Shown here piece after piece: positions 1,035 to 41,387 of a stretch of DNA of 64,000 nt; the first letter of the stretch is position 1; each line of letters starts with the position of its first letter. The notes below the pieces were generated by a model. It was not told the DNA's origin and did no database searches. It was given only the letters and a program-made list of their open reading frames with translations. Position numbers and translations under genes: made by a program. The stretch spans positions 384,001 to 448,000 of the forward strand of contig CAWEJX010000008.1 in NCBI GenBank assembly GCA_963809485.1, written 5' to 3'. Source of the stretch: an uncultured Acidobacteriota bacterium. GTDB taxonomy: Bacteria; Acidobacteriota; UBA6911.

Positions 1035-1048
1035 TTTTGTCTAAGCTC

Positions 1049-11417: not shown

Positions 11418-11816
11418 CCCGGAAAATCTCCATGTTTGGGAGGTTGATTTTGAATTCAGGCTTTGTCTTTCGAAGCCCGCATTCGTTTTTATAACCGACG
11501 CGGCGACATGGCATGTAAATGGATAGAGTCATAGATCCCAATATTGTCGGATTTTTGCTTAAGAAGAGAACTCCTTTAAATGACCGTCACTCGTTTGTTG
11601 CGGATATATTCCTTTATTGCAAAGAATTGCCTTTTTACAACTCGGCCACTCAGCAGAGCCTTCATTGGGGCGGGGAGGATAGGCGGATGCAAGGCTTGCG
11701 GCCGAGGGCGCTCCGGTGTACCTGGCTGTACGCCGGAGCATCCTCGGTCGCAATACGCAGCAGATGTGCCCGCTGGCGCCGCCGCGGCCAGGGCCCCATG
11801 AATGATCCGGGCCAAT

Positions 11817-13319: not shown

Positions 13320-13830
13320 TGCGGATTCTCCTTCCCCTTGATCATTAGTGCTAAGTGCCATAACAGGATATTGCTAAATATGCCAGTGCTTGGTGTAAAT
13401 GTCTTCCGTAACTATGGTTTTATGAGCCTTTCAATCCTGGGATGCAAGCTGGAAGGCGCGAACCGTTCAGAAAACCGACATAATCGACGGAACCGTGAAC
13501 TGAAGATTGAGAAAAACTTATGCGATCTGGAGGTCTTCACGGCATCCCCTTTGTGCGGAACGCGCCAGGCGATGGAATCAATGCGGCCTCCCGCCGCCAG
13601 ATGCCGGCATCCGCATCTGTCGGCATAAAATCCATGCGTTACAGCGCCATGCTGCTCTCGATCTATTTCAAAATCGTCTATCCGCAAATTGCAGGAGGCT
13701 CAAAGCCGCCAAAAATCCAAGGCGATTCAAACCTCGCTTCCGGAATTGTCAACCCTATGCTTCATCCCGCAGATCTGGAGGATCACTCAATGGAATATCA
13801 GCAGAATGGGAACGCATAGCTCCAGACGTC

Positions 13831-14100: not shown

Positions 14101-15837
14101 CTATCTTTGTGAAACTATCGGGAGCTGTAGATAGGAGTCATATTGGGAGCCCGTGTGAATTATATGCGTACCCTTGTTCGTGGCCAGCGCGGTGCCCTTC
14201 AATTTGTTCCCTGCCACCGTCAGTAGCAGTTGCTCACCCGCCCGCCATAACAAACCCGTGGGCAGAATCGCGATATCGACCGGAACAATCTGGCCGGAAG
14301 CAAGGAATTGGTTTCTCCGGAATTTATGAACAGGCTGGAAGTCCGTAGACAGCACGGGATCGAGTTCACGAAGCGAGACCCGCAGCCTGCCGTCGGGCCA
14401 CGGAACCCGGTCTTTGCTGCCGGCTTTCTGCACCGTGACAAAAAGATCCATATCGTTGGCGCCGCCAGCTTCAACCCAAAGGCGCAACTTCGGGTAACCC
14501 ACAATCCTGGTCTCTTCCGCAAACGTGACTGTAAAAACAGCTTGACCGGTTTCAGCGTCGTACTTTGCATAAGACGCATTAGGGACCGGCTTGAGATCGA
14601 GTTTGCCGCTGCGCGCATCAAGGTGGAACTTCCGGTATTCCGTGCCGGCCGGGGGCCAACGGGTCTCAGGGCGGTTGACTTCATCGGCTCCGCCCGGGTT
14701 CATCACCGTCAACCTCACTGTGGGAGTCTTCTCCCAGCCGTTTTGAATGCCTTTCAGATATCGGTCGAAAAAGAGCAGCAGGTCCTTTTGATTTACAGGG
14801 TCGTACTGATCATTCCATTCCCCCTTGTTTTCTATGCGAAGCCACTTCTCTTTTGAAGCGACATCCAGAAAGCCCTGGAGATCCCGGCCGTAGGCGCCAA
14901 CAGAGTAGACAGGTATCCGAATCTTTTTCACGTCGGCAATCTTGTCTTCCCAATAGGGGTGCATCAGGGGGTATTTGACAATCATTTTGTAAGGCGCCTC
15001 CGCGCGGTTTCCCGCCCCCGTCATGCCGCTGGTAATGTATTCGTCGAAACGGGCATCCGGAATGCCTCCCCGGCAGAGGTCCCATCGATACACGTCGTAA
15101 AAATGGGCCCCCCAGGGAGAGATCGCCGCGAGGTGCGGCGGCTGCAGGGCGGCGATATACCATTGTGCAATTCCCAGCCACGAGGTGCCGTTCAGCGCGA
15201 TCTTGCCGCTGCACCAATGCTGGCGTGCCGCCCACTCCACGACCTCGTACCCATCCGCCGCATCCACGCTTCCCCAGTGGTAAATGTCGCCTTGCGATTT
15301 GAAAGCGCCGCGCGTGTCGACGTTAAGGACCGCATAGCCATGGTTGCACCAGAACGCGGGGTCAGGACCTTCAAACCTGGTCAGGCTCGAGACCCAACTG
15401 GCCGGTACGGTCTTATTGAAGTGCGCCACCGGGTCGGCAGGCAATGATTTGCCATAAGGCGCCCAGGCAATCAGGGCCGGCAACCTGGCGGCGGTCTTGG
15501 CCGGACGAAAGATGTCGGCGTAGATCGTTACGCCATCGCGGAGTTTAATGGCGACATCACGATCCCAGATGATGTCGCAAGGGAGGGCCATCGTACCGGG
15601 AAGCAAGACGGTTCCCTTCGCGAGGATTTTGGTCCCCGGACTGAATCCCAGATAGGTCTGATATGAAAACTGGTTGGCCGGTTCGGTTAACGCTCGTGTG
15701 GGCTGAAAAATGACGCCCCATTCCGCCGGATATGCCGATGGGAATGCCTTCTCTTTTTGTTGCGGATATCCGTTTGCCAGCAAAAGGAGACAAAACGCAG
15801 GGATAAGCGTGGCTTGCAGAAAGGCTCTGTCGAGCAT
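14101..15837 (-). CDS. Secreted CocE/NonD-family alpha/beta hydrolase
   Basis: RDGVTIYADIFRP, PYGK, GTSWLG nucleophile elbow, C-terminal PepX-like domain; signal peptide. Confidence 0.88.
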   Translation of the reverse strand: MLDRAFLQATLIPAFCLLLLANGYPQQKEKAFPSAYPAEWGVIFQPTRALTEPANQFSYQTYLGFSPGTKILAKGTVLLPGTMALPCDIIWDRDVAIKLRDGVTIYADIFRPAKTAARLPALIAWAPYGKSLPADPVAHFNKTVPASWVSSLTRFEGPDPAFWCNHGYAVLNVDTRGAFKSQGDIYHWGSVDAADGYEVVEWAARQHWCSGKIALNGTSWLGIAQWYIAALQPPHLAAISPWGAHFYDVYRWDLCRGGIPDARFDEYITSGMTGAGNRAEAPYKMIVKYPLMHPYWEDKIADVKKIRIPVYSVGAYGRDLQGFLDVASKEKWLRIENKGEWNDQYDPVNQKDLLLFFDRYLKGIQNGWEKTPTVRLTVMNPGGADEVNRPETRWPPAGTEYRKFHLDARSGKLDLKPVPNASYAKYDAETGQAVFTVTFAEETRIVGYPKLRLWVEAGGANDMDLFVTVQKAGSKDRVPWPDGRLRVSLRELDPVLSTDFQPVHKFRRNQFLASGQIVPVDIAILPTGLLWRAGEQLLLTVAGNKLKGTALATNKGTHIIHTGSQYDSYLQLPIVSQR

Positions 15838-15973
15838 AATTCCCCCTCCAGGCATTGCTAGTCGCGAGCGGAATCTTGATCGAGCGGGTCTTGAGAGACT
15901 GTCTCAAAACTGCCGGCGAGGATCTCGCCACAGTCGTTTTGAGGCCGATTCTGGAGGCCCGTCCATAAATTAT

Positions 15974-16011
15974 AACGCTGACGTACGCCGATAAACGCTG
16001 ACGTACGCTGA
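15974..16011. repeat. Short REP-like tandem repeat (AACGCTGACGTACGC x2)
   Basis: Direct repeats visible; related motif on the opposite strand at ~46932-46972. Confidence 0.6.
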
Positions 16012-16036
16012 AAAATTATAAATATGTTCTTTCCAG

Positions 16037-17827
16037 CTATTCGGACTTCAAATTTGCCAGCCTCTCGCCAAGCATATAGCCCTCGGTCATTGCCATGCCG
16101 AGGCTTATGCCTGCAATGGGACTCTGATACACCACGATATATCGATTCCCGGCATTATTGCCCGCAGCATAGAGGCCTTGGATGGGCTTGAACTCCTTGT
16201 TGAGCACGCGTCCATCCGCATCGGTGTCGAGGCCGGTGGTCGCACAGAGGCCGGGGCTTATGGCCGAGAGCATTCCGGAACCATCATTCTTACTCACGCT
16301 GCCATAGAACGGTGGATCTTTAAGCGCAGTCACCTTCATAATGCGCGGATCTTTGCCGTAGTCTTCATCAACACCTTTTTCGCACAGTTGATTGTATCGT
16401 TCGATCTCGGCCAGCGCTTTTTTCCTGGCTTCGCCTTTGTAGCAACCCATATATTCGAGAAGCTCCTCGATCGTATTGGCGCAGTACATATTGGCTATCG
16501 ACTTTTCCAACTCCGCATCCGGATTTTGCATTATTGATGCCAAATCTCTTGCCGCAGTCTGCTTTCCAGGGGCGGGGGGACCGGGCTTTAAAGCGGCCAT
16601 CAGCTTGAGTCTTGCCGGATATTTAAGAGTATGGGCAGTATCCACAGCCCCGTGGCGGGGCGGCATCATCTCGATGATTTTTTGATAATTTGCATCGTGT
16701 ATAGTGACGGTAAAGCCCCCCTTCGGCACAGGAATGGTAGTGCCGGCGGCTTCGTCGCAGAAGCGTTCACCGTTGCTGTCGAGCTGCAAATACCACTCCC
16801 CTGCACCCGGATCGCCGGCACCCATGGTGGAACGGGGCCCAATTTCAATGTGCCCCCCTGCCCAGATGCCCAGTTTGATGCTGGATCCGTCGCGGGGGAT
16901 CATCGCCATCATATCCGTCTGCACCAGGTTTACATCGCCTTGCGCCTCAGCGCTGTGGCGAAGCAGATCCAGGATATCGATGACCATCTGTTTGTTGCCG
17001 GCGAAATCGCCGGCGCAGAGAGCAACGGCCTTTGAGGCGTGGAAGCGAAAATACCTGCCGTCGGATGTTTTGGCAATCACGCCAGTCACCGCGCCGGAAC
17101 GATCGACCTCGCATATTTCGGCATGGTGATCGAAAAACCACCTGGCGCCCTCCGCTACGGATTTCCTTTGATGGGTCTTCATCACGTCCGTCCATCTCCA
17201 TACCGGCGTGGGGTCGGTCATTTTTCGGAAGATGGTGGTTCCGTAATAGAATTTCCAGCCGGATACTTCCATGAGAACATTTGGCTTGGGAGGCAAGCTC
17301 ATCAGGTGCGAGTTTTCGGCCATCCATTCCGGGTTCATATCCTTGATGACCCAGTCGAAGATCCTGCCGCTGTTTTTCACGAAATAACTTGCCCTCTTGG
17401 GGCTGTGGCGGATTACGTTGCGGCAGGCCCATTCTCTGAGGAAATCCTGCTCATCGATCTCCGGGGCACCGTGATCACGCGCCCATTGTGAATTGACAGT
17501 TCCGACCTCACCTCCGATATGCCTGTATTTCGCCTCCGACTGAGCTTCGATGACAGCCACGGAAGCGCCGTTCATGGCAGCGACGCGGGCGCAAAGCACA
17601 CCGGCGGTGCCGGCGCCCACAACAACGATATCGAATTTGCCTGCATCGGCAATCAGCTTCTCGTCAATGGGATCCGGCCTGTCCATCCATGATTTAGGCT
17701 TCGTGGTTTGTGTCTGCGAATTGGACTGTCCGGGTGCCAGGACGGCGAAGGCGCCGGTTGCGCCGGCTCCTTTAAGGAAACTGCGCCGATCGAGGTTTGC
17801 TTTAGAGTTCTTATTATTCTCAGGCAT
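16037..17827 (-). CDS. Tat-exported FAD-binding protein (flavocytochrome c/fumarate reductase flavoprotein superfamily)
   Basis: DRRSFLK; VVVGAGTAG; GVDEDYGK; PIQGLYAAGN; GISLGMAMTEG. Confidence 0.85.
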   Translation of the reverse strand: MPENNKNSKANLDRRSFLKGAGATGAFAVLAPGQSNSQTQTTKPKSWMDRPDPIDEKLIADAGKFDIVVVGAGTAGVLCARVAAMNGASVAVIEAQSEAKYRHIGGEVGTVNSQWARDHGAPEIDEQDFLREWACRNVIRHSPKRASYFVKNSGRIFDWVIKDMNPEWMAENSHLMSLPPKPNVLMEVSGWKFYYGTTIFRKMTDPTPVWRWTDVMKTHQRKSVAEGARWFFDHHAEICEVDRSGAVTGVIAKTSDGRYFRFHASKAVALCAGDFAGNKQMVIDILDLLRHSAEAQGDVNLVQTDMMAMIPRDGSSIKLGIWAGGHIEIGPRSTMGAGDPGAGEWYLQLDSNGERFCDEAAGTTIPVPKGGFTVTIHDANYQKIIEMMPPRHGAVDTAHTLKYPARLKLMAALKPGPPAPGKQTAARDLASIMQNPDAELEKSIANMYCANTIEELLEYMGCYKGEARKKALAEIERYNQLCEKGVDEDYGKDPRIMKVTALKDPPFYGSVSKNDGSGMLSAISPGLCATTGLDTDADGRVLNKEFKPIQGLYAAGNNAGNRYIVVYQSPIAGISLGMAMTEGYMLGERLANLKSE

Positions 17828-17881
17828 ACCTTGGTCTCCTTAGATTACTGGCCCCCCTTGACAGAGCACTTCGTTCGCTGG

Positions 17882-18811
17882 CTAATCGGTGTGTACTTGA
17901 TGTTTCGGAACCTTTATCTGCGGTTTCAGGTATTTGCCATAGGCGTTGTACTGCCTGATCTTTTGCTGGGTCTCCGGCATGGCGGTCTGAGGTTCTTCTT
18001 CAGTACGATGCCTCATAATCCATTCCAGATGGTGGCGTTGTTTGGAGGCGGAGAACCGGGGATTTTGAATATCCTCTGCGTTCCAGGCAACTTGATAGGT
18101 ATTCCCGTTGCAGGACACCTGGCCGTGTATCTGGCAGGTGGGGCAGGCGATGTCCGGAAGACCTTTCTCAAGATAAAAGATATTGCAATGGCAAACGGGG
18201 CAGGAAATGGGCGATTCTTCGCCCGCATATCGAACCTTCTCAAAAGGCAGTTTCATGGACATTGTCAGGTTATGCCCGAGTTTCCGGCTTCTATCAATCG
18301 CCCACTGGTTATCCGGTGTCAGAGCAGCACCCAAGTCCGCGCAGTGGTTTATCTGGACCTGGTCCACGATGGTTGAGAAATGCTGAAGGAACAAATGAAC
18401 GGTGGGCAAGCCAAGACTGGTCCAACCGTCATAGCCGGAACCGCCCACCGATATGGCAGCCGACAGTTTTTTGCGATCATGTACATAGGGATTCTTCATG
18501 AAGACGTGGTTCAGTTTATCGCTGACACATATCAGAGCAGCCGAGGTTCTGATATGGTATACCGGAGCAGCCACAATTAGGGCCGTATTCCCCAACATGG
18601 TGTTTTCAAGAATCCAATCGGTGTCATCATGGGGACATTTTGCATTTTTAAAACAGGCGCCGCAGCTCTTGCAGGGCACAATTTTGAGCTCAATGGCCCG
18701 GATTATGTCCGATTCTATGCCATCCTCTTCAGCAGCCATTAACGCTGCCTTTAAAAATGCCTCACAATTTCCATTTTTTCTTCCAAAAGACAGCCCGATT
18801 ATCCTTTCCAT
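17882..18811 (-). CDS. Flavodoxin-fold FMN protein with C-terminal Zn-ribbon (flavone reductase FLR-like)
   Basis: NGN..LKAALM, CKSCGAC..C, APVY, SVGGS..W, CPVCH..CPTC; about 309 aa. Confidence 0.75.
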   Translation of the reverse strand: MERIIGLSFGRKNGNCEAFLKAALMAAEEDGIESDIIRAIELKIVPCKSCGACFKNAKCPHDDTDWILENTMLGNTALIVAAPVYHIRTSAALICVSDKLNHVFMKNPYVHDRKKLSAAISVGGSGYDGWTSLGLPTVHLFLQHFSTIVDQVQINHCADLGAALTPDNQWAIDRSRKLGHNLTMSMKLPFEKVRYAGEESPISCPVCHCNIFYLEKGLPDIACPTCQIHGQVSCNGNTYQVAWNAEDIQNPRFSASKQRHHLEWIMRHRTEEEPQTAMPETQQKIRQYNAYGKYLKPQIKVPKHQVHTD

Positions 18812-18867
18812 TTGGCTCCCCCCTGAATGATTGGGTCTGCAGCCGGAAGCGGATGGATTGAACAAGC

Positions 18868-19518
18868 CTATACCGGCATCTCGGAAACATCCGCTGGAAC
18901 AATAAGGCTCGCCTCCGTTGCTGCAATTACATTTTCTATGCTTACACCAGGCGCCGTCTCCCTGAGGGCCAAGCCCTCCTCGGTTGGCTCAATCACCGCC
19001 ATTTCCGTCACAATCAGGTTGACTCGCCGTACCGAGGTTAAGGGAAGAGTGCAATGCTTCAGTATTTTCGGTTTGCCTCTCGCAGTATGGGACATGGCGA
19101 CAATAACCCGCTTGGCTCCGGTCACCAGATCCATGGCGCCGCCCATTCCCGGCAGCATCTTGCCCGGCACCATCCAGTTCGCCAGCCGACCCTGTGCATC
19201 TACTTCCAGGCCGCCGAGAATGGTCAAATCCAGATGGCCGCCGCGGATCAAGCCGAATGAAAGGCAACTATCAATACTGGCGGCGCCTGGAATGGCACCG
19301 ACGAAGCCACCCCCGGCATCGGTGAGCGACGGCTCTTCCATTCCAACCCCCGGAACCGGCGTCATGCCGATGATGCCGTTTTCGGATTGGAAGTAGACTT
19401 CTATCCCGGGAGGCAAATACCTGGGAACCATTGTAGGCAGTCCGATACCAAGATTCACCAGACTCCCATTCCTCAATTCGCGCGCAACCCGCTTCGCAAT
19501 CAGAGCCTTATCGTCCAT
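18868..19518 (-). CDS. atoA: 3-oxoacid CoA-transferase subunit B
   Basis: VNLGIGLP, QSENG catalytic Glu, GMGGAMDL. Confidence 0.9.
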   Translation of the reverse strand: MDDKALIAKRVARELRNGSLVNLGIGLPTMVPRYLPPGIEVYFQSENGIIGMTPVPGVGMEEPSLTDAGGGFVGAIPGAASIDSCLSFGLIRGGHLDLTILGGLEVDAQGRLANWMVPGKMLPGMGGAMDLVTGAKRVIVAMSHTARGKPKILKHCTLPLTSVRRVNLIVTEMAVIEPTEEGLALRETAPGVSIENVIAATEASLIVPADVSEMPV

Positions 19519-19522
19519 TTTT

Positions 19523-20179
19523 TTAGCCCCTCCCGATGATGTGATGAACGCAGACAAACGGGGTCGCTACCGCATCCGGGGGGATGACCCCGGTCGGGAC
19601 GATGTGTTCCGGCTCGGCGATAACCGTCCTGCCGGCTGTAGCCATAACGACATTGAAATTGCGTGCGGTCAAAGAATATTCGAGGTTGCCTCGATAATCT
19701 GAACGATGAGCAGCAATCAGCGCAAAATCGGCTGTCAACGGCTTTTCCAGCAGGTATTGTTTCCCGTCCACCTCAATCACCTGCTTCCCCTCCGCAACCA
19801 CGGTCCCGATGCCGGTCGGGGTGAGAATGCCGCCAAGCCCGAAACCTCCCGCGCGAATCCGCTCTGCCAGCGTGCCCTGCGGGCAAAGCTCTGCTTCCGT
19901 TTCGCCGGCGATCACTTGCCGCTGGGCTTCGGGATTCAAACCGATGTGAGAGGCGACAAGTTTGCGAATCATCCGGGCCGCCACCAATAGGCCGATCCCG
20001 AAATTCGGCGTGCCGGTATCATTGGCGATGACCGTGAGATCTTTCCGACCCTGGCGAACCATTTCGGCAATCATGCGATGCGGCGACCCAACCCCCATGA
20101 ACCCGCCGATCATGATCGAGGCCCCATCCGGGATCATTTCTACAGCTTCGCTACAGCTAATGAATTTGTCCATCCGCAT
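19523..20179 (-). CDS. atoD: 3-oxoacid CoA-transferase subunit A
   Basis: IMIGGF, ND, PQGTLAERIRAGG, ARNFN. Confidence 0.9.
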   Translation of the reverse strand: MRMDKFISCSEAVEMIPDGASIMIGGFMGVGSPHRMIAEMVRQGRKDLTVIANDTGTPNFGIGLLVAARMIRKLVASHIGLNPEAQRQVIAGETEAELCPQGTLAERIRAGGFGLGGILTPTGIGTVVAEGKQVIEVDGKQYLLEKPLTADFALIAAHRSDYRGNLEYSLTARNFNVVMATAGRTVIAEPEHIVPTGVIPPDAVATPFVCVHHIIGRG

Positions 20180-20188
20180 CGCGCCTCT

Positions 20189-21124
20189 TTAGAACCCGAC
20201 CGCTCCCGCGCCCTTCAGTCCCAGCATTTGTCTCATGTCTTCCGGGGTAGCAATCTCCCGGTCGAATTCGCGCGCCAGACGCACGATTTTTTCGACAAGT
20301 TGTGCGTTGGTGCAGAGCTTCCCTTTGCCGATGAAAATGTTATCCTCGAGCCCAACGCGCACGTGCCCACCCATCATAATTGCCATGGCGGCAAGATTGA
20401 TCTCGGCGGGAAAGCCAACGCCGATAACCGACCACTGGTAATTCTCGCTGCCGAAAAGCCGGTCGGCGGTTTGCTTCATCACGATCAAGTCTTCTATATT
20501 CGCCGCCAGCCCGCCCAGCACTCCCAGAACAAACTGAATCCAAAAGGGAGGTTTCACGATGCCGCTCTTCATCATGAAGCGGAGATTGTACAGGTGACCT
20601 ACGTCATAGGCTTCGAATTCAGGACGCACATTGTTTTCGGCAAAAGTGCTGGCATAGGTCTCCATATCGCCGAATGTATTTCGAAATATGAAATCCTTCG
20701 TCCCTTCGGCATACGACTGTTCCCAATCGTACTTGTAGTCCCCGGCCTTGTATCTCCTCGCCACCGGATGAATGGAAAAATTGATGCTTCCGAGGTTGAA
20801 CGATGCCAATTCGGGGCGATAGCGTGGAATGACGCGCAGCCTGTCCTGAGGCGACATGCCCATGCCTCCCCCGGTTGTAACCCCGACCACGACGTTGCTG
20901 CCGGCCTTGATTCCCTTCAGGATCGGCCCGAAGAGATCGGGATCGGAAAGCGGGCGCCCGTTCACAGGGTCGCGCGCATGCACGTGAACTGCGGCAGCGC
21001 CCGCTTGACCGCATGCGATCGCATCCGCGATGAGGTGCTCCGGCGTGAACGGCAAGTGAGGCGTCTGGGTTGGAATTGTGATTGCGCCCGTTAGTGCGGA
21101 CGTGATGATTAGCTTGTCGGCCAT
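20189..21124 (-). CDS. Beta-keto acid cleavage enzyme (BKACE/DUF849); candidate triacetate lyase
   Basis: ITSALTGA, HVHARDP Zn motif, PELASFNLGS, GHVRVGLEDN. Confidence 0.9.
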   Translation of the reverse strand: MADKLIITSALTGAITIPTQTPHLPFTPEHLIADAIACGQAGAAAVHVHARDPVNGRPLSDPDLFGPILKGIKAGSNVVVGVTTGGGMGMSPQDRLRVIPRYRPELASFNLGSINFSIHPVARRYKAGDYKYDWEQSYAEGTKDFIFRNTFGDMETYASTFAENNVRPEFEAYDVGHLYNLRFMMKSGIVKPPFWIQFVLGVLGGLAANIEDLIVMKQTADRLFGSENYQWSVIGVGFPAEINLAAMAIMMGGHVRVGLEDNIFIGKGKLCTNAQLVEKIVRLAREFDREIATPEDMRQMLGLKGAGAVGF

Positions 21125-21198
21125 GGCTGCTCCTCTAATCTAAGCAATCTGTTTGTCTGCCGAGAAATCTTTCCGGACGGATCTTGGAAGCTGTAAAG

Positions 21199-21582
21199 CT
21201 ATTTTGCGCGCTTTGCGATGAACTCCTCTGCTCCATAGCTGCCCACCTGTCGGGAGCCATGGATCTCATCACCCGAAACTTTGCCCTTGTACTCGGCTCT
21301 GAGCTCTTGGCCCTGCACTTTCAATGTTTCGACAAATGATATTTGATCACCCTTCACAGAACCTTCGGTTATAGCGGATTCACTGGACCCGCCTTGCATC
21401 GACATCACGGCCTTTCCTGTGAGCTTTTCTCCCTCGACCATAAATTCGAAGGTGTAGTTCATCACACCAATCCCGGTCTGTATCGCGGTGGTCCATTTGC
21501 CCGAAATATCGGCGGCAAAGGCCGGAACCAGACAGAGAAGCGCAACAGAGACAAACAGCAGAACTTTTGCCCATTTCATCAT
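21199..21582 (-). CDS. Small secreted beta-rich hypothetical protein (ADISGKW-type)
   Basis: Signal peptide, ADISGKW..LTG..G.V.GD.ISF; RBS AGGAG. Confidence 0.75.
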   Translation of the reverse strand: MMKWAKVLLFVSVALLCLVPAFAADISGKWTTAIQTGIGVMNYTFEFMVEGEKLTGKAVMSMQGGSSESAITEGSVKGDQISFVETLKVQGQELRAEYKGKVSGDEIHGSRQVGSYGAEEFIAKRAK

Positions 21583-21610
21583 AGGGTCTCCTTTTTAAGG
21601 GTAGTGCCAA

Positions 21611-21646
21611 TACCACGATATGGTATTTAAATACCATATCGTGGTA
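21611..21646. promoter_or_regulatory. Perfect 36-bp palindrome made of two TACCA-N5-TGGTA boxes (probable IclR operators)
   Basis: TACCACGATATGGTATTT|AAATACCATATCGTGGTA between divergent operons. Confidence 0.75.
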
Positions 21647-21674
21647 CACTGCGGCAACAACAAAGGAGGCCCTA

Positions 21675-22013
21675 ATGAAAAAGGTGGAATTGCAGGACGC
21701 AAAACCCTATGCCCCACCCAAGCATTTCAACATGACGGCCTTGAGGCTGCATGGAAAGGAGGAGACCGGAACCCAGCAGTACTGGATGGGGCTCTCTCAT
21801 TTTCTTCCCAATGGAGGCGCGGAGATGGACGCGACTCCAACGGAAAAACTTTATTTTGTGCTCGAAGGAGAGGTCACGGTCACCGCTCCGGACAAGCAAA
21901 CATACGTGCTGAAGCCCTGGGACTCCCTTTATGTCGGCCCTAATGAAGCCAGGGCGATCATCAACAATACGAACAAACCGGCAAGCATGCTTGTGATTAT
22001 CACATACACGTAA
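21675..22013 (+). CDS. Cupin domain protein
   Basis: EKLYFVLEGEVTV..DSLYVGPNE; GGAGG RBS. Confidence 0.85.
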   Translation: MKKVELQDAKPYAPPKHFNMTALRLHGKEETGTQQYWMGLSHFLPNGGAEMDATPTEKLYFVLEGEVTVTAPDKQTYVLKPWDSLYVGPNEARAIINNTNKPASMLVIITYT

Positions 22014-22045
22014 TCGGGATGGATCCCGCGAAAGGCGGTGCATCA

Positions 22046-22837
22046 ATGGAATCACGCGTTGATTTGAACTATGTCCGAAACATGTTCAGTCTCGCAGGCA
22101 AAGTGGCGATCGTGACCGGCGGAGCGGGAGCCCTGGGACAGGCGATCGCGCAAGGTTTGGCGGTATATGGAGCTGACGTTATAGTCACCGGCCGCACCTT
22201 GAAGACGCTGGAGCCGGTTGTAAAAGACATCGAGGCTGCCGGCCGAAAAGCCTTGGCTCTGAGCTGCGACGTCGCTGTTGAAAAAGATGTCGAAGCCCTG
22301 ATGAGGGAGACTTTGAAAGCATTCGGTACGGTGGATATCCTGGTCACGGTTGCCGGGATTGCGAAGCGCTTCCCCGCCGAGGAATTTCCGATCGATGACT
22401 GGCAGCAGGTCATGGACATCAATGTCCGAGGGACCTTCCTCTGCTGTAAACACGCAGCGAAAACTTTCAAAGAGAAGAAAAAAGGCAAAATTATCACCAT
22501 CTCATCCGTGCGCGCTTTTGCAGGCCATCCCGGCGGGTATGCCGCCTATGGCACCAGCAAAGGTGCCGTGAATCTCCTGACAAAGCAGCTGGCGACGGAG
22601 TGGGCAAAATACAATATCAATGTTAACTCGATTGCTCCCTGCATCTTCTGGACGCCTCTCACGCAGGAAGTTCTGGAGAACGAGCAGCTATACAAGGTTT
22701 TTATGTCCAGGATTCCCATGGGGAGGGCGGCGCTGACTCAGGATTCTGTTGGTGCAGCCGTTTATCTTGCGTCCCCGGCCTCGGATTTCGTCACCGGGCA
22801 AGTCCTCTATGTGGACGGCGGCACAGTCGCAGGATAG
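22046..22837 (+). CDS. SDR oxidoreductase; candidate phloroglucinol reductase
   Basis: TGGAGALG, YxxxK (YGTSK), VDGG; basic residue after beta2 (TGR) suggests NADP(H). Confidence 0.85.
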   Translation: MESRVDLNYVRNMFSLAGKVAIVTGGAGALGQAIAQGLAVYGADVIVTGRTLKTLEPVVKDIEAAGRKALALSCDVAVEKDVEALMRETLKAFGTVDILVTVAGIAKRFPAEEFPIDDWQQVMDINVRGTFLCCKHAAKTFKEKKKGKIITISSVRAFAGHPGGYAAYGTSKGAVNLLTKQLATEWAKYNINVNSIAPCIFWTPLTQEVLENEQLYKVFMSRIPMGRAALTQDSVGAAVYLASPASDFVTGQVLYVDGGTVAG

Positions 22838-22864
22838 AAACCATTTAAGATTGGAGACCCTGAA

Positions 22865-23665
22865 ATGAGCAACATGAAATTGGTGGACCTCAGTCATCCC
22901 TTTGGCCCTGGCTGTCCCCTGTGGCCATACTTCGAGGACGTCAAGGTTGAGCGAATGCATTATCACGCCAAATCCGGCGTTCTCTCGCAGAAGATCACTA
23001 CCGTGATGCACTGCACGACACACGCCGACTCGCCGGGACACGTGGTCGAGGGGCTCCGATTCACGCATGAATTGCCGTTGGATCTCTACTACGGGACGGG
23101 CGTTGTAGTGGATATTCCGAAAAAAAAATGGGAATTGATTACGGCCGAAGACCTGGAAAAGGCAACGCCCAAGATTGAGAAGGGCGATATCGTCATTGTC
23201 CACACCGGCTGGAATAAATATTGGGGAGACAATAAGGAGTACTTCTGCTACTCCCCCGGTCTGGGACGCGAAGCGGGTGAATGGTTTGTCGCCAAGGGAG
23301 TGAAAGCCGTAGGTGTAGACCAGCAGGCTTTGGATCATCCCCTGCATACAGCGATTGGTCCGCACGGACCCGGTCCCATCATGCCGTCACTCAGTGAAGA
23401 ATACAAACAGATGACAGGACGCGACGTGCTGGCGGATTTCCCCGAATGGGAACCCTGTCACAACCTTCTCCTTAGAAATGGCATTATGGGTTGGGAGAAC
23501 GTAGGCGGCGATATCGCGATGGTTGTCGGGAAACGCGTCACGATCATGGGACTTCCGTTGCGATGGTATATGGGAGACGGATCCATAGTCCGGATGGCGG
23601 CGTTGATCGACGAGAAGGACATCAATCCCGTTCCTCCCAGAGTCTATAAATACGGCGTGGTATAG
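22865..23665 (+). CDS. Cyclase-family metal hydrolase; candidate dihydrophloroglucinol cyclohydrolase
   Basis: VDLSHP, HCTTHADSPGH, VHTGW, GVD, EN, GDGS motifs. Confidence 0.88.
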   Translation: MSNMKLVDLSHPFGPGCPLWPYFEDVKVERMHYHAKSGVLSQKITTVMHCTTHADSPGHVVEGLRFTHELPLDLYYGTGVVVDIPKKKWELITAEDLEKATPKIEKGDIVIVHTGWNKYWGDNKEYFCYSPGLGREAGEWFVAKGVKAVGVDQQALDHPLHTAIGPHGPGPIMPSLSEEYKQMTGRDVLADFPEWEPCHNLLLRNGIMGWENVGGDIAMVVGKRVTIMGLPLRWYMGDGSIVRMAALIDEKDINPVPPRVYKYGVV

Positions 23666-23673
23666 GACAGGAG

Positions 23674-24588
23674 ATGCTGGAATATATGGAAAAAATTGCG
23701 GTGATCGGCGCCGGGCTGATGGGACACGGCATCGCGCAGGTTTTTGCGGTGATTGGGCACGAGGTCGCCATCCACGATCCTTTCCCGGAAGTGCTGGCAC
23801 GAGTTCCCGAGCGGGTGCGTGCAAACCTGGAAAGCCTTGGCCTCGATCAATCCAGTGTCGAGAGAATATCGCTGCACGGCACAATCAAATCCGCGATAGA
23901 AAAAGCCGACATTGTTTTCGAGGCTGCGCCCGAGAACCTTGCAGTGAAGCAGGATCTCTTCGCAAAGTTATCGGCCTCCACACAGGCCGGCTGCATCCTG
24001 GCCAGCAATACCTCGGTCATTCCAATTGGAGAGATCGCTGCCCGTGCTGGAGACCCGGGACGCATCCTGGGCACGCACTGGTGGAATCCTCCGTATTTGA
24101 TACCGCTGGTCGAAGTCGTCCAGGCTCCTCGCACGGAATCGGTCTATATAGAAAAGTGCATCAATCTGCTAAGGCGGGCGGGAAAGATCGCGGTCCACGT
24201 CAAACGCGATGTGCCGGGCTTTGTCGGCAACCGTCTGCAGCACGCGCTTTGGAGAGAAGCCATTTCCATCGTGGAAACCGGAATTTGCGATGCCGAGACG
24301 GTCGATCTCGTGGTGAAAAACAGCTTTGGGATGCGGTTGCCCGTGTTGGGACCTTTGGAGAATGCGGATCTCGTGGGGCTGGACTTGACTCTGGCCATTC
24401 ACGATGTAATCCTTCGCCATTTGGAAGCCTCGCCTGAACCCAGCCCGTTGTTGGCACGCTATGCAGGGCAACATCGACTGGGAATGAAAACGGGTCGAGG
24501 ATTCTACGAATGGACGCCAGAGACGGCGCAGGGTGTCCGTGATCGTCTGATGCGGTACCTGCGAGGGGTGATACAAAAGGAAAAGTAA
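23674..24588 (+). CDS. 3-hydroxyacyl-CoA dehydrogenase family protein
   Basis: GAGLMGHG, ASNTS, HWWNPP..LVE, PGFVGNR, LGMKTGRGFY. Confidence 0.9.
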   Translation: MLEYMEKIAVIGAGLMGHGIAQVFAVIGHEVAIHDPFPEVLARVPERVRANLESLGLDQSSVERISLHGTIKSAIEKADIVFEAAPENLAVKQDLFAKLSASTQAGCILASNTSVIPIGEIAARAGDPGRILGTHWWNPPYLIPLVEVVQAPRTESVYIEKCINLLRRAGKIAVHVKRDVPGFVGNRLQHALWREAISIVETGICDAETVDLVVKNSFGMRLPVLGPLENADLVGLDLTLAIHDVILRHLEASPEPSPLLARYAGQHRLGMKTGRGFYEWTPETAQGVRDRLMRYLRGVIQKEK

Positions 24589-24589
24589 G

Positions 24590-25378
24590 TTGGTGATCAA
24601 GCGTTCGAAAAGAAATCCGGGAATTCGGGAGCGGAACGGGATTCAGGTAGTCGCTCGCGCTGCGGAAATCCTGCGGGCTCTCGAAGGAAGCGATGGCATG
24701 AGTCTCGGCCAGCTTGCCGGACGGGTCGGCTTGCCCAAATCGACGGTGCAACGGATCATCGCTGCGCTTGATTTCGAGAATTTTGTAGTCTCAGTGTTTC
24801 CTGACAAGCGCCTGCGGCTTGGCCCGGGATTGGTCAGGATTGCCCGTTCCATCCGTTTTCCTATCGCCGAAACCGCCCGGCCCTATCTTCGGGAGCTTTC
24901 CGAGAAAACGGGAGAGACCGTCGACCTCGCAGTTCTGGATGGGGATAAGGCAGTTTTTGTGGATCAAATCCCGGGGACGCACCGCCTTCGCGCCGTGTCC
25001 GCCATTGGAGTCTCATTCCCGTTGCATTGCACGGCAAACGGTAAGGCAATGTTGGCCGCGCTTGATGATGAGGGATTAGGCCGGCTGAAAAAGCGCATTC
25101 GTCTGACTGCTTTCACTGAGAACTCCATTCAATCCTGGGAAAAGCTTAAGCGTGAACTTCTCGAAATCCGGGAAACCGGATTCGCCTACGACAGGGAGGA
25201 ACACTCGATCGGGATCTCGGCCGTTGGAACTGCCGTCATCGGCTTTGACGGAGATCTTGCCGCAATCACGATTCCGACACCGACGGTGAGGTTTTTGAAA
25301 AAGGCGCCCGAATTGGCAAAAGCACTTAAGTTTTGCCGTGATAAGGTTGATAGAATTCTGGGCGGGCATCATCGATAG
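24590..25378 (+). CDS. IclR family transcriptional regulator
   Basis: HTH GLPKSTVQR; GETVDL; PLHCTANGKA; GFAYDREEH. Confidence 0.92.
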   Translation: MVIKRSKRNPGIRERNGIQVVARAAEILRALEGSDGMSLGQLAGRVGLPKSTVQRIIAALDFENFVVSVFPDKRLRLGPGLVRIARSIRFPIAETARPYLRELSEKTGETVDLAVLDGDKAVFVDQIPGTHRLRAVSAIGVSFPLHCTANGKAMLAALDDEGLGRLKKRIRLTAFTENSIQSWEKLKRELLEIRETGFAYDREEHSIGISAVGTAVIGFDGDLAAITIPTPTVRFLKKAPELAKALKFCRDKVDRILGGHHR

Positions 25379-25546
25379 AGTAGAAGAGCCGAGGCCCCCC
25401 GGGACCTTTTCAGAATCTTTGCCTTGAAGGCACAAAAACTCCTGTGACCCAATTTTCGAATACCGATCGCGCTTTTACAATTCGTTTCTGTATCAATTTT
25501 GCATCATCGGCAAGCAATCCATGCACGGACGAAGGAGAACTGACGA

Positions 25547-27139
25547 ATGGCAACAGCGCAACAGCAGATAGTTGAATCAGCCGGCGGCCAAAAACGGATC
25601 CTGTGGGGGCTGGTTGCCGTATTCCTGACCTACTTTGCTCACGGCTACTTCATCCAAATCCTGATGCCTGCCTTGCCCAAAATAGCGGCCGACCTGGATG
25701 GGATGCCCTGGTACTCCTGGGGCATCTCGATACCACATCTGGGACAGGCCTTTGCGATGCTTCTGGTGGGCAAACTGTCCGACATGTATGGACGGCGCGC
25801 CCTGTTGCTGGTATCCCTGGCCATCTGCCTGTTGGGTACGGTCTGGAGTGCCCTCAGCGCGACATTCATGATTTTTATTATCGCCCGTACGGTTCTCTGC
25901 ATCGGGCAGGGGGCGTTGGCGCCGCTGGTTTTCTCGGTGCTGGGCGATATGTTCGAGCCGGTGGAGCGAAGCAAATGGGCCGGTCTTCTCAATATCCCGG
26001 CCGGTATCTTCGCTTTTATCGGCCCCACCCTGGGCGGATGGTTTGTGGACAATCTCAGCTGGCGCTATATCTTCTGGTGTGGAGCGCCGCTGCTGATTAT
26101 CTGCCTGGCGGCGGTGCTGTTCGGCCTGACCGGACGGACCCTGCATTCGGCTCCCAAAATAGATTCCCGCGGTGCCCTATCCGCCGCCATCGCTTCATCG
26201 GCCATGATCCTTGCATTTTCATTGGCCGGGACATTGTATCCCTGGCTATCGATCCAGGTGATCGGATTGTTGGTCGGATCCATTGTTTTTTGGGTGCTTT
26301 TCATAAAAACTGAGGCCGGCGCGGAGCAACCGATCCTGGATCTCGAGGTGCTCAAGAACAGGTCGGTTGTCACTGTGTCGTCCGCGTGTGTGCTATCCGC
26401 CATCGGGATGATAGGGATAGGGATTTATTTCCCGCTCATGATGCAGGGCGTTCAAGGCATCAGCGCAACACTGACCGGAAAAATAATAACTCCCGGCGGT
26501 ATTCTCATGGGTTTTCTCGGCGTTCCCGCGGGTTTCATACTCGCGCGCACGAAACGCTATAAATGGATGTATATCCTGGGCTACGGCCTCGCGACGGCTG
26601 CAGCGTGCCTTCTGGTCTTCTTCAATGCAGCGACTCCCGTGTTTGCGGCAGTGGTCGTCAATGTTGTCAGCGGCTTCGGAATAGGAGCCATACCGACTCT
26701 CAATTCGCTTGTTGTTCAATATGCGGTGCCCAGAAGGCTCCTGGGCGTGGCAACCAGTGCTCTGTTCTTCTTCGTGATGATTGGACAGTCGATTGCCCCT
26801 GCAATTCTCGGCTCGGCTATGAATACCCGCTACAACAGTGTGCTAAAGGAGACGCTCCCGGCTGAATTGTCTCAACTGACGACTGAGGCGACCATGACTT
26901 CCCTGGGCAACCCTCGCGTGCTTCTGTCGCAACCGGCAATGGAGGCGCTCCGGAAGACTCTCGATAACAGGCGGGAAGTTATGGATCAAACGGTTTCCGC
27001 CATCCGGACATCTATGGAATCCAGCCTGAGGTTTGTTTTTATCATCGGGTCCGTATGCATGCTGCTCGCATTTCTGACCATATGCACCATTCCGGAAATT
27101 TCCATCGATGCCAAGGTGGAGGAAAAGAAACCTGTTTGA
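25547..27139 (+). CDS. MFS transporter (DHA2-like, 14 TM)
   Basis: GKLSDMYGRR, GPTLGG, WRYIF. Confidence 0.88.
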   Translation: MATAQQQIVESAGGQKRILWGLVAVFLTYFAHGYFIQILMPALPKIAADLDGMPWYSWGISIPHLGQAFAMLLVGKLSDMYGRRALLLVSLAICLLGTVWSALSATFMIFIIARTVLCIGQGALAPLVFSVLGDMFEPVERSKWAGLLNIPAGIFAFIGPTLGGWFVDNLSWRYIFWCGAPLLIICLAAVLFGLTGRTLHSAPKIDSRGALSAAIASSAMILAFSLAGTLYPWLSIQVIGLLVGSIVFWVLFIKTEAGAEQPILDLEVLKNRSVVTVSSACVLSAIGMIGIGIYFPLMMQGVQGISATLTGKIITPGGILMGFLGVPAGFILARTKRYKWMYILGYGLATAAACLLVFFNAATPVFAAVVVNVVSGFGIGAIPTLNSLVVQYAVPRRLLGVATSALFFFVMIGQSIAPAILGSAMNTRYNSVLKETLPAELSQLTTEATMTSLGNPRVLLSQPAMEALRKTLDNRREVMDQTVSAIRTSMESSLRFVFIIGSVCMLLAFLTICTIPEISIDAKVEEKKPV

Positions 27140-27380
27140 GCGACAGCAACCGCGTGGCGATGTGCGTCAGCCCGACGCCGGACACAAGCCCAATGCCGAA
27201 CGCAGAGTTGCTCAGGGGCCTCAATGCCCTATCGAATGGCGTCGGACGCCGGAAGTGGAAGCCCGGTAAACAGAGGTTAATGGATCGGCAACAACAAGGA
27301 CGGTCTGATTGCCAGGCCACCCCGCCTGACGTGCACATTCTTTGTTACAGCGCCCTTAATCCCAAATTCGCATCATTTTT

Positions 27381-28652
27381 CTAAGGCAATTCAACCCCTT
27401 GAGCAATGAGCCTTTTCTGAAGGGCCTTGGTATCAACTTTCCGCAGCGGCACGCTGTTCCTGACAGCCAGAGCGGCGGCTGTCCCCGCGGCCTGACCCAT
27501 CTGGATGCAGTGTGGAATGACGTTGAACATGGTATTGGCAGCTTGATCGGATGAAAAACAGCGTCCGGCAGCGAGAAGTCCATCCAGCTTGACTGGCACA
27601 AGGCAACGGTACGGCATTCCGACGTTCTTGGGCTCGCTGCCTCCGGGCCAGCTAAGCGGAACGCCCTGCGGGAACATCAACACGGTGTCATCGAATTTCT
27701 TGCCAGAACGCGCTTCCTCGCCGGTTAACACATATTCGCCGACCAGACGACGGCTGCCGCGGGTTCCAGTCTGCGATGCACTATCGTATAGATAGCTGCT
27801 TTCGAAGCCGGGCACATTCTTCTTATAGTAGGAATAAACCGGTAGCATTGCCTTACGCACATTAACGTCGACCCAGGTAAGGTCCTCAACGTTGATACAG
27901 CTCTTGCCGGGTATAAAGCTGTTAACCCAGAAAACATCTTTACGCTGGGCGGCTACCGGCACCAAAGGGAATCCGGCTAGTTTGAACGCTTCGTTTCTCA
28001 TTTCTTCCCACTTCCCCGGCTGCGCCGCGCGGAAATCGGCAAATTTATCAAAATCAATTCCCCCGATTCGGAAAACCATGGCCAGATCGGATGATCGGTA
28101 TCTTTTGTCCAGTGAAGCATCAAATTCCGCGCCGGAGAAAGCGAACACATCTCCATCACCGGTGGCATCAATGATAACTTTTCCCAGGATTGCCTGACGC
28201 CCGGACTTACTTTCGAAAATAACGCCTTTGACGGTGTTCTCTTCAACAATTGCCGCCGTGCTCCAGGAATGAAGAAGCTGCTTTACGCCGGCATCGAGAG
28301 CCATATCGTTCAGGATGCACTTCAGGAGCTCGGGGTCGACCATGAGGGCACGTCTTAAAACCCCTGGCTCTTTGGTTTTAGAGAGATCGTGCGCGCCGCC
28401 CACTTCATTCAGCCGGTCCAACCATTCCTGACATTGGCCTGCAGGGTACTGGTTAATCATCAGAACCAAACCACCCGTGGCCATGCCGCCAAGGCAGCCA
28501 TACCTTTCCATCAAAATCGTGTCCGCGCCTTCGCGCGCCGCCGCAATAGCCGCAGTAACACCTGCCGGTCCAGCTCCCACCACGACAACGTCCGCCTCTG
28601 CAAAGACATTCGTTTCCCGCGCAGCTTCGAAAATTGTTTTTAAATTGGCCAT
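27381..28652 (-). CDS. FAD-dependent oxidoreductase (FAD_oxidored), cytoplasmic paralogue of 11817..13319
   Basis: VVVVGAGPAG, LGGMATGG, FESKSGRQA, IDATGDGD, PYRCLVP; no signal. Confidence 0.88.
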   Translation of the reverse strand: MANLKTIFEAARETNVFAEADVVVVGAGPAGVTAAIAAAREGADTILMERYGCLGGMATGGLVLMINQYPAGQCQEWLDRLNEVGGAHDLSKTKEPGVLRRALMVDPELLKCILNDMALDAGVKQLLHSWSTAAIVEENTVKGVIFESKSGRQAILGKVIIDATGDGDVFAFSGAEFDASLDKRYRSSDLAMVFRIGGIDFDKFADFRAAQPGKWEEMRNEAFKLAGFPLVPVAAQRKDVFWVNSFIPGKSCINVEDLTWVDVNVRKAMLPVYSYYKKNVPGFESSYLYDSASQTGTRGSRRLVGEYVLTGEEARSGKKFDDTVLMFPQGVPLSWPGGSEPKNVGMPYRCLVPVKLDGLLAAGRCFSSDQAANTMFNVIPHCIQMGQAAGTAAALAVRNSVPLRKVDTKALQKRLIAQGVELP

Positions 28653-34776: not shown

Positions 34777-35436
34777 TTATTTAACGTAAATTATTTTCGA
34801 ACCCTGTTTCTTTATTTTCAGGGAAGCCTGTCTGTTGATAGCCGGGTCGGTAACAATCTGCCATATTCCCCAGAGGGCCGGCAGGAAAGCCTTGAATGTA
34901 CTGACCTCGGCGATGTTGTGTGTTTTCCATCCGCCGCCGGTCGGTTTCTTTCCGCTCGGGTGCGGCGGCAACGGTCCAAGCGGTGCACCGTGGGGAGGCC
35001 CATTGCGGGGAGGCCCGCCGGGAATGCCGTGCATGCAGGAACGCATTTTGCAGCCGCCGGGGATAGCCTCCCATTGGTGGGAAAGCACTACGGACATTTT
35101 CCCGGTACGGGGGTCGGTCGGCCCCGCGGCAGTAAGAAGGTGTTCGTAAGTCCAGAACTTTTTCTGTTCGTCGGTACCAAGGTTGGGGTCCACCCACTCG
35201 ATACGGAGATGCATGACCGGGCCGTAATCGATACTCTCGGTAGCTATCTGCACCGCGCCGATATGCCCGCCCAGCGGCGGTGTAACGTCCCATTTGAATC
35301 CCTTGTGCTCGTCAGGGCACCATAGTTCGTAGCCTTTTTCCATATTTACCCACCACCAATCGATCATTTCTTCGGTCACGCCGGGAACAATATGATCGAC
35401 AACGGCCCAACTTTCAGGAAATTTTTCTTCGCCCAT
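34777..35436 (-). CDS. DAPG hydrolase PhlG / phloretin hydrolase-like protein
   Basis: PGVTEEMIDWWW, Y.LWCPDEH, conserved E, HNIAE (HxxxE). Confidence 0.75.
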   Translation of the reverse strand: MGEEKFPESWAVVDHIVPGVTEEMIDWWWVNMEKGYELWCPDEHKGFKWDVTPPLGGHIGAVQIATESIDYGPVMHLRIEWVDPNLGTDEQKKFWTYEHLLTAAGPTDPRTGKMSVVLSHQWEAIPGGCKMRSCMHGIPGGPPRNGPPHGAPLGPLPPHPSGKKPTGGGWKTHNIAEVSTFKAFLPALWGIWQIVTDPAINRQASLKIKKQGSKIIYVK

Positions 35437-40917: not shown

Positions 40918-41387
40918 GAGACATTCCTCCTCGATAGTTGGTTGGCCACAACCGCCACGACCCGGAAACTCCGGAATGAGAAATCTCAAGCACGCATGTC
41001 ATCAACAACAAACCTGTTTCATCCTGTTTATTGCGCGGCCGCGCGGCTCCCAATTTGTCGAGTAGAACCTTGAAATGACTTCTGAATTTACTGGGCTGCG
41101 CTGGCGAGTCTTGCCTCTTGGCCGCTACGGGATCAGACTAACTATGCCATCAATCGCGTATTTGATTTCAGTATACGAGTGGCCCTCGGGGCACACAAGA
41201 GGAAAGTTGCGTCAGAAGCATCCGGCAATTTCAGGGGGCAGACTCAATAGGAGCTGCCGGTATCGTCGGCGCCTCGCCGGCTATTTGCAGTGTGGCTGAC
41301 TTTTTTGAGGATCTAAAGGCTGGTTCGCACGCCCGGATGGTCTGGAATACGAGAAGAAATTGAGACTCGACCTCGGCCTGCGGCACT

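Follow-up and report, generated by a model that had tools for sequence, protein, structure and literature searches.

The window analysed here, a stretch of 64,000 nucleotides from an uncultured bacterium of the Acidobacteriota (lineage UBA6911; assembly GCA_963809485.1, contig CAWEJX010000008.1, positions 384,001 to 448,000), carries at 18868–25378 two divergently oriented groups of genes that most probably (at roughly 0.85) form an IclR-controlled regulon for the use of phloroglucinol (1,3,5-trihydroxybenzene) as a carbon source, by a reductive route that does not require O2. The basis for this assignment is gene content, protein families, diagnostic residues, synteny, a conserved operator and phyletic co-occurrence, from which we infer every enzymatic activity, the effector of the regulator and the co-transcription of the genes.

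The pathway itself is known. Zhou et al. (mBio 2023, PMC10470551) describe, for Clostridium scatologenes, a phloroglucinol reductase (PGR), which is a short-chain dehydrogenase/reductase (SDR); a dihydrophloroglucinol cyclohydrolase (DPGC) of the cyclase family that uses Mn2+; a 3HCDH-family dehydrogenase (TfD); and a triacetate acetoacetate-lyase (TAL) from the family of beta-keto acid cleavage enzymes (BKACE), followed by the CoA-transferase CtfAB and thiolase. The same source counts 12,225 co-located hits, which span many phyla and include facultative aerobes, and names Rubrivivax gelatinosus as a phloroglucinol degrader carrying the cluster. Its supplementary cblaster list also holds the contig JAFGTD010000031.1 ('Acidobacteria bacterium'), with matches to the C. 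scatologenes (Cs) enzymes CsTfD (45.1%), CsDPGC (42.8%) and CsPGR (38.4%). This contig corresponds to locus L012 of the present comparison, whose cyclase shares 95% identity with the one in the window, and since this sister genome is already in the 2023 supplement, although listed there without discussion, the cluster is not new.

In the acidobacterium, the SDR would reduce phloroglucinol to dihydrophloroglucinol with NADPH, and the cyclase-family hydrolase would open the ring by retro-Claisen hydrolysis, yielding (S)-3-hydroxy-5-oxohexanoate. This free acid is predicted to be oxidised by the 3HCDH-family enzyme to 3,5-dioxohexanoate (triacetate), which the BKACE would convert, together with acetyl-CoA, to acetoacetate and acetoacetyl-CoA. 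CtfAB would then activate the acetoacetate to acetoacetyl-CoA, and thiolases encoded elsewhere would carry it on to acetyl-CoA. The IclR protein is expected to bind a 36-bp palindrome that separates the units, and to let go when its effector is present.

Gene content and organization

Genes were called from a listing of open reading frames (ORFs) and from Pfam and NCBIfam profile scans of the window. The plus-strand unit begins with a 112-residue single-domain cupin (21675–22013; PF07883), followed by the SDR, a predicted NADPH-dependent phloroglucinol reductase (22019–22837; PF13561, PF00106), the cyclase-family metal hydrolase, a predicted dihydrophloroglucinol cyclohydrolase (22865–23665; PF04199, 129.2 bits), the 3HCDH-family enzyme, a predicted (S)-3-hydroxy-5-oxohexanoate dehydrogenase (23674–24588; PF02737, PF00725), and the IclR-family regulator (24590–25378; PF09339, HTH_IclR, and PF01614, IclR_C), whose start lies 1 base past the dehydrogenase stop. 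Relatives of the SDR begin at its second Met, at about 22046. Transcribed in the opposite direction are a long-class BKACE, predicted to cleave triacetate (20189–21124; PF05853), and subunits A (19523–20179; TIGR02429, PF01144) and B (18868–19557; TIGR02428) of a 3-oxoacid/acetoacetate CoA-transferase. The true start of ctfB is probably the ATG at 19518, 5 nt past the ctfA stop. All of these genes had been recognised, in this order and orientation, by the first-pass annotation of the region. It had overlooked a 127-residue ORF with a signal-peptide-like N-terminus (21199–21582, minus strand), without a Pfam or NCBIfam match, which heads the minus-strand unit between BKACE and the divergent promoter. 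The same position is occupied by a 70–85% identical ORF in five acidobacterial loci (L007–L010 and L012), and the ORF is kept solely in such sister loci. A scan of 15800–27400 for promoters and terminators gave no excess over shuffled sequences (7 vs 7.9 and 13 vs 13.1).

Locus counts given here and below rest on 80 loci from other species that were retrieved via the cyclase, many of which end at contig edges. ORFs of the same families lie near the cyclase in most of them: an SDR in 67, a cupin in 63 and the dehydrogenase in 53, with a BKACE in 37 of the 80. Because the same families recur around the cyclase in so many other species, their grouping in the window is not a matter of chance.

Predicted ring hydrolase and dehydrogenase

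The cyclase is 64–98% identical across the 80 loci, which come from more than 10 phyla, and has at least 477 confirmed relatives. Its H49/H53/D55/H59 motif is invariant in the 13 aligned sequences; the His/His/Asp/His residues are the metal ligands of kynurenine formamidase and isatin hydrolase. W20 and Y22 are also invariant (13/13). As described for the clostridial enzyme, Trp20 and Tyr22 separate CsDPGC from isatin hydrolase, which has Ile/Leu there (PMC10470551), and the window residues were matched to them via this published description rather than by alignment with CsDPGC itself. Cyclase paralogues in the same genome are at most 26% identical to the window protein, and one of them does not have W20/Y22.

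In the dehydrogenase, S114, H135 and N186 align with the catalytic Ser117, His138 and Asn188 of C. butyricum HBD (4kue). The CoA contacts of HBD are gone, Lys56 falling in a 4-residue gap and Asn221 being replaced by Arg221. CsTfD is likewise described as having no CoA contacts and a free-acid substrate (PMC10470551). The best solved relative of the window dehydrogenase, 4om8, is also an enzyme of a free acid.

Reductase

The SDR retains the Gly-rich NAD(P) motif (G34, G37, G40) and the Ser-Tyr-Lys triad (S163, Y177, K181), all invariant in 27 of 27 aligned SDRs. Equally invariant (27/27) are S163-x-R165 and Y174-x-x-Y177-x-x-x-K181, a signature that the window SDR has in common with the solved structure 5g4k and that is absent from 1vl8, 4z9y and 4jro. 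We take 5g4k to be a phloroglucinol reductase of Clostridium sp.; what was seen in support of this is a 15/16-residue match to a mass-spectrometry peptide of CsPGR.

An SDR tree was built from 70 rows, comprising the window protein, 60 locus SDRs and 9 paralogues from the same genome, after 7 ORFs outside the range of 230–320 residues had been dropped. The window SDR clusters with 59 of the 60 locus SDRs in a single clade (SH-aLRT 99), outside which the 9 paralogues fall. Three groups make up this clade: a Dehalococcoidia-type group, the group of the window (13 rows, among them Rubrivivax, Neomoorella and Paenibacillaceae; SH-aLRT 99) and a group holding locus L070. The latter two pair as sisters (SH-aLRT 97), and it is for the L070 protein that 5g4k is the top solved relative (243 vs 186 bits). 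Motif and tree together lead to the conclusion that the SDR probably works like a phloroglucinol reductase yet stands outside the clostridial sub-clade.

Beta-keto acid cleavage enzyme and CoA-transferase

The BKACE gene (PF05853, 330.6 bits) is present in a single copy in the genome, and its best solved relative is 3lot (1e-103). H47-x-H49 and E260 are present, as in the solved long-class relatives; the H-x-H...E residues are the Zn ligands of these enzymes. The best NCBIfam model is NF053538, named for a 3,5-dioxohexanoate enzyme (396.9 bits), whereas the KCE model of the lysine pathway scores 255.8 bits. We take the name of NF053538 to denote the TAL reaction, going by the name itself and by the BKACE survey of Bastard et al.

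In a tree of 37 rows, BKACEs of these loci fall into two classes, with an SH-aLRT of 99 on either side. The long class (25 rows) includes the window protein, Dehalococcoidia, Syntrophorhabdales and Pseudomonas japonica, and is thus represented in 24 other phloroglucinol loci, while the short, KCE-like class (12 rows) includes Rubrivivax, Neomoorella and Actinomycetota. The published description of CsTAL points to the KCE-like class (PMC10470551). The window cluster is a mosaic: its SDR groups with lineages that carry the short BKACE, whereas the BKACE found here belongs to the long class and is encoded with CtfAB on the opposite strand.

Both CoA-transferase subunits exceed the cut-offs of their models. 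CtfA reaches 224.4 bits with TIGR02429 (cut-off 128.5) and 218.8 bits with PF01144; CtfB reaches 293 bits with TIGR02428 (cut-off 243.55), is 77–87% identical in L008–L012, and has at residues 58–61 S-E-N-G, the catalytic Glu motif of CoA-transferase B subunits.

Assessment of the pathway assignment

The earlier proposal of a phloroglucinol-degradation gene set, with CtfAB to handle acetoacetate, is well supported by the motifs, the trees, the synteny and the published cblaster list, with the activities themselves being deduced. The enzymes do not, however, fall in the clostridial sub-clades: the SDR belongs to a phloroglucinol-linked clade, but there lies in the sister group of the 5g4k-type reductases, and the BKACE is long-class and not KCE-like.

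Several further observations weigh against the assignment. Identity to the sole set characterised biochemically is a modest 38–45%, as measured on the sister genome (PMC10470551), whose proteins are 81–95% identical to those of the window, and the enzyme activities are predicted ones. When solved structures are ranked for the window SDR, 5g4k comes fourth (162.2 bits), after 1vl8 (198.7 bits), a 'gluconate 5-dehydrogenase' of Thermotoga, and then 4z9y and 4jro. The best NCBIfam matches of the SDR are sugar-acid dehydrogenases, although every one is under its cut-off. The NADPH-specifying motif of the reductase is given as T-R-(S/N) in the published account (PMC10470551) and reads T-G-R-N in 5g4k, while the window SDR has T57-G-R59-T60, in which Thr and Arg are kept and the third position is Thr. 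The BKACE falls short of the equivalog cut-off of NF053538 (396.9 vs 430 bits), as do 7 of the 9 scanned long-class BKACEs from other phloroglucinol loci (389–424 bits; those of L069 and L079 pass), in a scan that covered 16 of the 37 BKACE ORFs. CsTAL has Trp in place of Glu14 of KCE (PMC10470551), and the window enzyme, compared by this description and not by alignment with CsTAL, has neither residue but Ile-Thr after its T-G-A motif. In the published cblaster row for the sister contig there is no CsTAL homologue (PMC10470551). This lowers the standing of the BKACE as a CsTAL orthologue, and leaves untouched the view that it cleaves triacetate.

Some of these matches would suit an unrelated sugar-acid or beta-keto-acid cluster, composed of a gluconate/ketogluconate-type SDR and a carnitine- or lysine-type dehydrogenase/BKACE. 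For the SDR, gluconate 5-dehydrogenase and KduD are the best NCBIfam names, carnitine dehydrogenase models match the dehydrogenase at 137–158 bits, and the KCE score of the BKACE points the same way. However, the sugar-acid, carnitine and KCE matches are all far under their cut-offs, the SDR carries the 5g4k-type signature that is missing from sugar-acid enzymes, and the cyclase and cupin, together with their co-occurrence in the 80 loci, are left unexplained. A cluster of that kind is very improbable.

The possibility that the same enzyme logic is applied to another substrate, such as methyl- or monoacetyl-phloroglucinol or another cyclic 1,3-dione, is somewhat more probable but still unlikely. 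It would accommodate the low identity to the characterised enzymes, the position of the SDR beside and not inside the 5g4k-type group, the existence of three deep SDR groups and two BKACE classes among these clusters, and the DAPG_hydrolase-like genes in the window and elsewhere in the genome. On the other hand, the substrate-recognition residues of DPGC named in the published text are invariant (PMC10470551), and R. gelatinosus, which among cultured organisms carrying an SDR of this group is the closest, is a listed phloroglucinol degrader (PMC10470551). The conservation of the cyclase is also far above what would be expected if the lineages differed in substrate.

Regulator and predicted operator

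The IclR protein is 76–86% identical, and encoded at the same position, in the sister loci. The predicted operator is a perfect 36-bp palindrome at 21611–21646, inside the 92-bp spacer between the divergent units, and consists of two 15-bp TACCAC-N3-GTGGTA-like sites with centres 21 bp apart. Both sites are kept in six acidobacterial spacers, where the flanks vary. Similar sites precede clusters of other phyla whose IclR proteins are 49–52% identical (L019, L072 and L078). A conserved operator of this kind makes the proposed IclR regulon testable.

Copies of the half-site with up to 2 mismatches number 9 elsewhere in the genome, against about 11 estimated by chance, and for this reason no wider IclR regulon is claimed. 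One of these, which matches the consensus across species (C17:1911), lies about 170 bp upstream of an ACAS_N/AMP-binding gene resembling acetyl- or acetoacetyl-CoA synthetases; the genome count being at chance level, it is recorded here as an observation. The ribosome-binding regions of the two divergent first genes (21582–21594 and 21662–21674) form a 13-nt inverted repeat that is 92% complementary and symmetric around the operator.

The cupin

The cupin occurs near the cyclase whatever the type of regulator. In 35 loci it immediately follows the cyclase, and in 37 of 60 it immediately precedes the SDR. It does not have the canonical His cluster of cupins, but Y12, H17, Y60, R93 and N97 are invariant. 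The predicted fold is a plain cupin (mean pLDDT 87.3), which in the model is nearest to TM1459 and to cupin-type polyketide cyclases. The family is small, with 373 representatives at E ≤1e-10 among 1.84 billion. In a 450-residue relative (P0128), two cupin domains come after three S-layer homology repeats, which suggests a cell-surface form of an otherwise cytosolic-looking family. Fusions of the cupin to pathway enzymes were not found among the 8 long matches scanned, which were tandem bicupins, the S-layer-homology and bicupin protein, and a tandem cyclase.

Across 31 clusters, pairwise distances between cupins follow those between cyclases (Spearman 0.74), and the partial correlation after removal of the SDR and dehydrogenase is also 0.74; none of 3000 permutations reached the raw value. 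The corresponding value for cupin and SDR is 0.18 (partial –0.22). As the sequences are related and not independent, this co-variation is best treated as a lead, not as proof.

The C. scatologenes counterpart, CSCA_1081, is a 113-residue Cupin_2 protein that adjoins CsPGR (CSCA_1082) and CsDPGC (CSCA_1083), and mass spectrometry identified it in gel bands from phloroglucinol-grown cells (PMC10470551, supplement). The main text of that paper contains no mention of the cupin, and a search of the papers available found none combining 'cupin', 'phloroglucinol' and 'cyclohydrolase'.

Most likely, as a working hypothesis, the cupin helps to open the ring, for instance by partnering the hydrolase or by serving as a keto-enol tautomerase for dihydrophloroglucinol. 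That it instead has no chemical role, being a bystander or else a small protein for ligand binding or regulation, is a serious alternative, if short of an even chance. The in vitro reconstitution of the four-enzyme pathway without a cupin (PMC10470551), the missing metal-binding histidines and the S-layer-bearing bicupin relative, with its hint of an extracellular binding role, all favour this. They are to be set against the retention of the gene in 63 of the 80 loci with any type of regulator, its frequent adjacency to cyclase or SDR, its invariant polar residues, its co-variation with the cyclase and its presence in phloroglucinol-grown C. scatologenes. A protein that co-varies with the ring hydrolase, that also adjoins the reductase in the type organism and that has no assigned role is, beside the operator and the mosaic build of the cluster, one of the more useful leads to come from this locus.

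Host and distribution

The first-pass suggestion that the DNA derives from a probable Acidobacterium is borne out by the six closest loci (95–98% cyclase identity), all from metagenome-assembled genomes (MAGs) of Acidobacteriota, and by two window proteins that pass TIGR03436 (acidobact_VWFA). Its statement that the organism cleaves the ring anaerobically needs to be amended. The route is independent of O2, but the genome has two COX1-family (heme-copper) oxidase genes and cytochrome bd, so that a strictly anaerobic life is not implied, and the published carriers of the cluster include facultative aerobes. The term anaerobic fits the chemistry, not the organism.

Of 401 genomes sampled throughout the phylum, one has the cyclase, and this is the genome of the window itself. 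Within the family it occurs in 10 of 51 genomes, all of a single genus (9 of the 29 others in that genus) and mostly of 5.2–6.9 Mb. The same 10 genomes carry a BKACE that is more than 90% identical, and the cupin is present in 9 of them and in none of the other 41. One sister genome (G442, locus L011) has a damaged cluster, which between ctfA and the SDR lacks the cupin and the small ORF as well as the first half of BKACE. Given the patchy distribution and the mixed-phylum trees, horizontal transfer probably brought the cluster into a single sub-lineage within one acidobacterial genus that is also able to respire O2. Thiolase genes lie outside the cluster, with 5 matches in the genome. A search of sequencing runs returned no RNA run, and the DNA runs (soil, wetland, bioreactor and sediment metagenomes) share at most 0.34 of words with the query.

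The cluster would add one more lineage, a sub-clade of an acidobacterial genus whose genomes measure 5–7 Mb, to those able to mineralise, without oxygenases, the phloroglucinol ring present in flavonoids and tannins, a point of relevance to the 'enzyme latch' view of how wet soils store carbon. Expression of phloroglucinol-degradation genes from 57 MAGs of 13 phyla has been reported in peat (ISME J 2025). The gain is incremental, since the pathway and its wide spread are published and the sister genome is in the supplement.

Neighbouring genes

Several genes around the cluster recur near phloroglucinol clusters of Chloroflexota, at 66–81% identity. Downstream of ctfB, after a gap of 2 nt, the minus strand encodes an FMN_red-like Cys-rich protein (17882–18865), and 54 nt further on, a TAT-signal FAD_binding_2 flavoprotein (16037–17827), both identified by family scans and both possibly co-transcribed with ctfB. 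An 81% identical counterpart of the FMN_red-like protein is encoded in the Chloroflexia locus L080, likewise ahead of an FAD_binding_2 protein, but the FAD_binding_2 proteins of the two places are only 24% identical. The flavoproteins that adjoin the shared accessory genes in the window and in L080 were considered as orthologues, but are not called such because they are only 24–29% identical. Beyond the IclR gene, a DHA2-type MFS transporter (25547–27139, plus strand; PF07690) is a possible member of the cluster; an 83% identical protein was seen in L007 alone, 4 kb further away. The C. scatologenes cluster also contains an MFS transporter (PMC10470551).

A possible upstream supply of phloroglucinol is indicated by the three DAPG_hydrolase-family genes of this genome, of which the window holds one. 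That gene (34777–35436, minus strand) encodes a short, 219-residue protein and is separate from the gene of a fumarate-reductase-like flavoprotein (31897–33741, minus strand), both assigned by family scans. In L080 the two genes are adjacent. Elsewhere in the genome of the window (L089:8050–10299, on contig C20), a 749-residue protein fuses a fumarate-reductase-like flavoprotein with a short DAPG_hydrolase-like domain, alongside genes for a full-length DAPG_hydrolase and a LysR protein. In L020, L065, L080 and L086, homologues of the short hydrolase (71–78% identical) are encoded no more than about 6 kb from the ring hydrolase. The flavoprotein and short hydrolase are a candidate pair for a reductase and C-C hydrolase step that would release phloroglucinol.

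A tentative extension, doubtful as a whole, combines this pair with the cupin. The cupin would be a true fifth component of the pathway, acting with the ring hydrolase either as a subunit or as a tautomerase that feeds diketo dihydrophloroglucinol to the slowest enzyme of the route, and would have escaped notice because a cupin is dispensable in vitro; the window would be part of a larger polyphenol island in which the flavoprotein and short DAPG_hydrolase-like protein, a pair not described before, release phloroglucinol from compounds of the acyl-phloroglucinol or dihydrochalcone type.

Among the products of the window's genes are three flavoproteins with PF12831 and two with FAD_binding_2, along with TonB-type receptors and MFS transporters. 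One TonB-dependent-receptor-like gene (37304–40989, minus strand; CarboxypepD_reg and OMP_b-brl_4) is split near its 3' end into ORFs of 1000 and 225 residues, through a frameshift or an assembly error. At 69–3301 (minus strand) lie Mo and FAD subunits of the xanthine dehydrogenase family, whose best NCBIfam matches, 4-hydroxybenzoyl-CoA reductase alpha and XdhA, are far under cut-off, and at 10206–13361 there is an NapH/NapG-like polyferredoxin with a PF12831 flavoprotein.

Comparison with known systems

The cupin matches, over its full length, the equivalog model of Mycobacterium tuberculosis Rv1717 (NF050094, named beta-D-galactosidase; 84.6 bits, E 5.4e-24), but remains under the cut-off of 175. 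Rv1717 presumably lies inside a cluster of the same families, Rv1714–Rv1719; the text of the Rv1717 paper does not mention its neighbouring genes. Mycobacteria are reported to carry the phloroglucinol cluster, and the first entry in the DPGC list is a UniRef50 cluster that takes its name from an M. tuberculosis protein (PMC10470551). A beta-D-galactosidase assignment is at odds with the genomic surroundings of the window cupin.

Collinsella sp. zg1085 has an aldolase-dependent pathway (Li et al., AEM 2024, as cited in a review) that shares the reduction and ring hydrolysis steps. There, however, the aldolase splits 3-hydroxy-5-oxohexanoate to acetone and malonate semialdehyde, whereas the window has the branch with dehydrogenase and BKACE.

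Compared with C. scatologenes, the window has the same five enzyme families along with CtfAB, an MFS transporter and a regulator (PMC10470551), and the same local order of cupin, reductase and ring hydrolase; the diagnostic DPGC and TfD residues are kept. It differs in the identity of 38–45% noted above for the sister genome, in a long-class BKACE that is divergently transcribed with CtfAB, in an IclR regulator with a palindromic operator, and in the lack of a thiolase gene within the cluster. C. scatologenes is a strict anaerobe, whereas the host of the window is an acidobacterium with aerobic oxidases.

A cultured organism with a comparable cluster is R. gelatinosus (L035 and L038), in which the order is similar (CtfA-CtfB-cupin-SDR-cyclase-BKACE), the SDR is 63–64% and the cyclase 71% identical, and the SDRs belong to one tree group. 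No dehydrogenase match at 60% coverage was seen within the Rubrivivax loci. Their cupin is 45–48% identical to that of the window, and their BKACE is of the short, KCE-like class and 34% identical.

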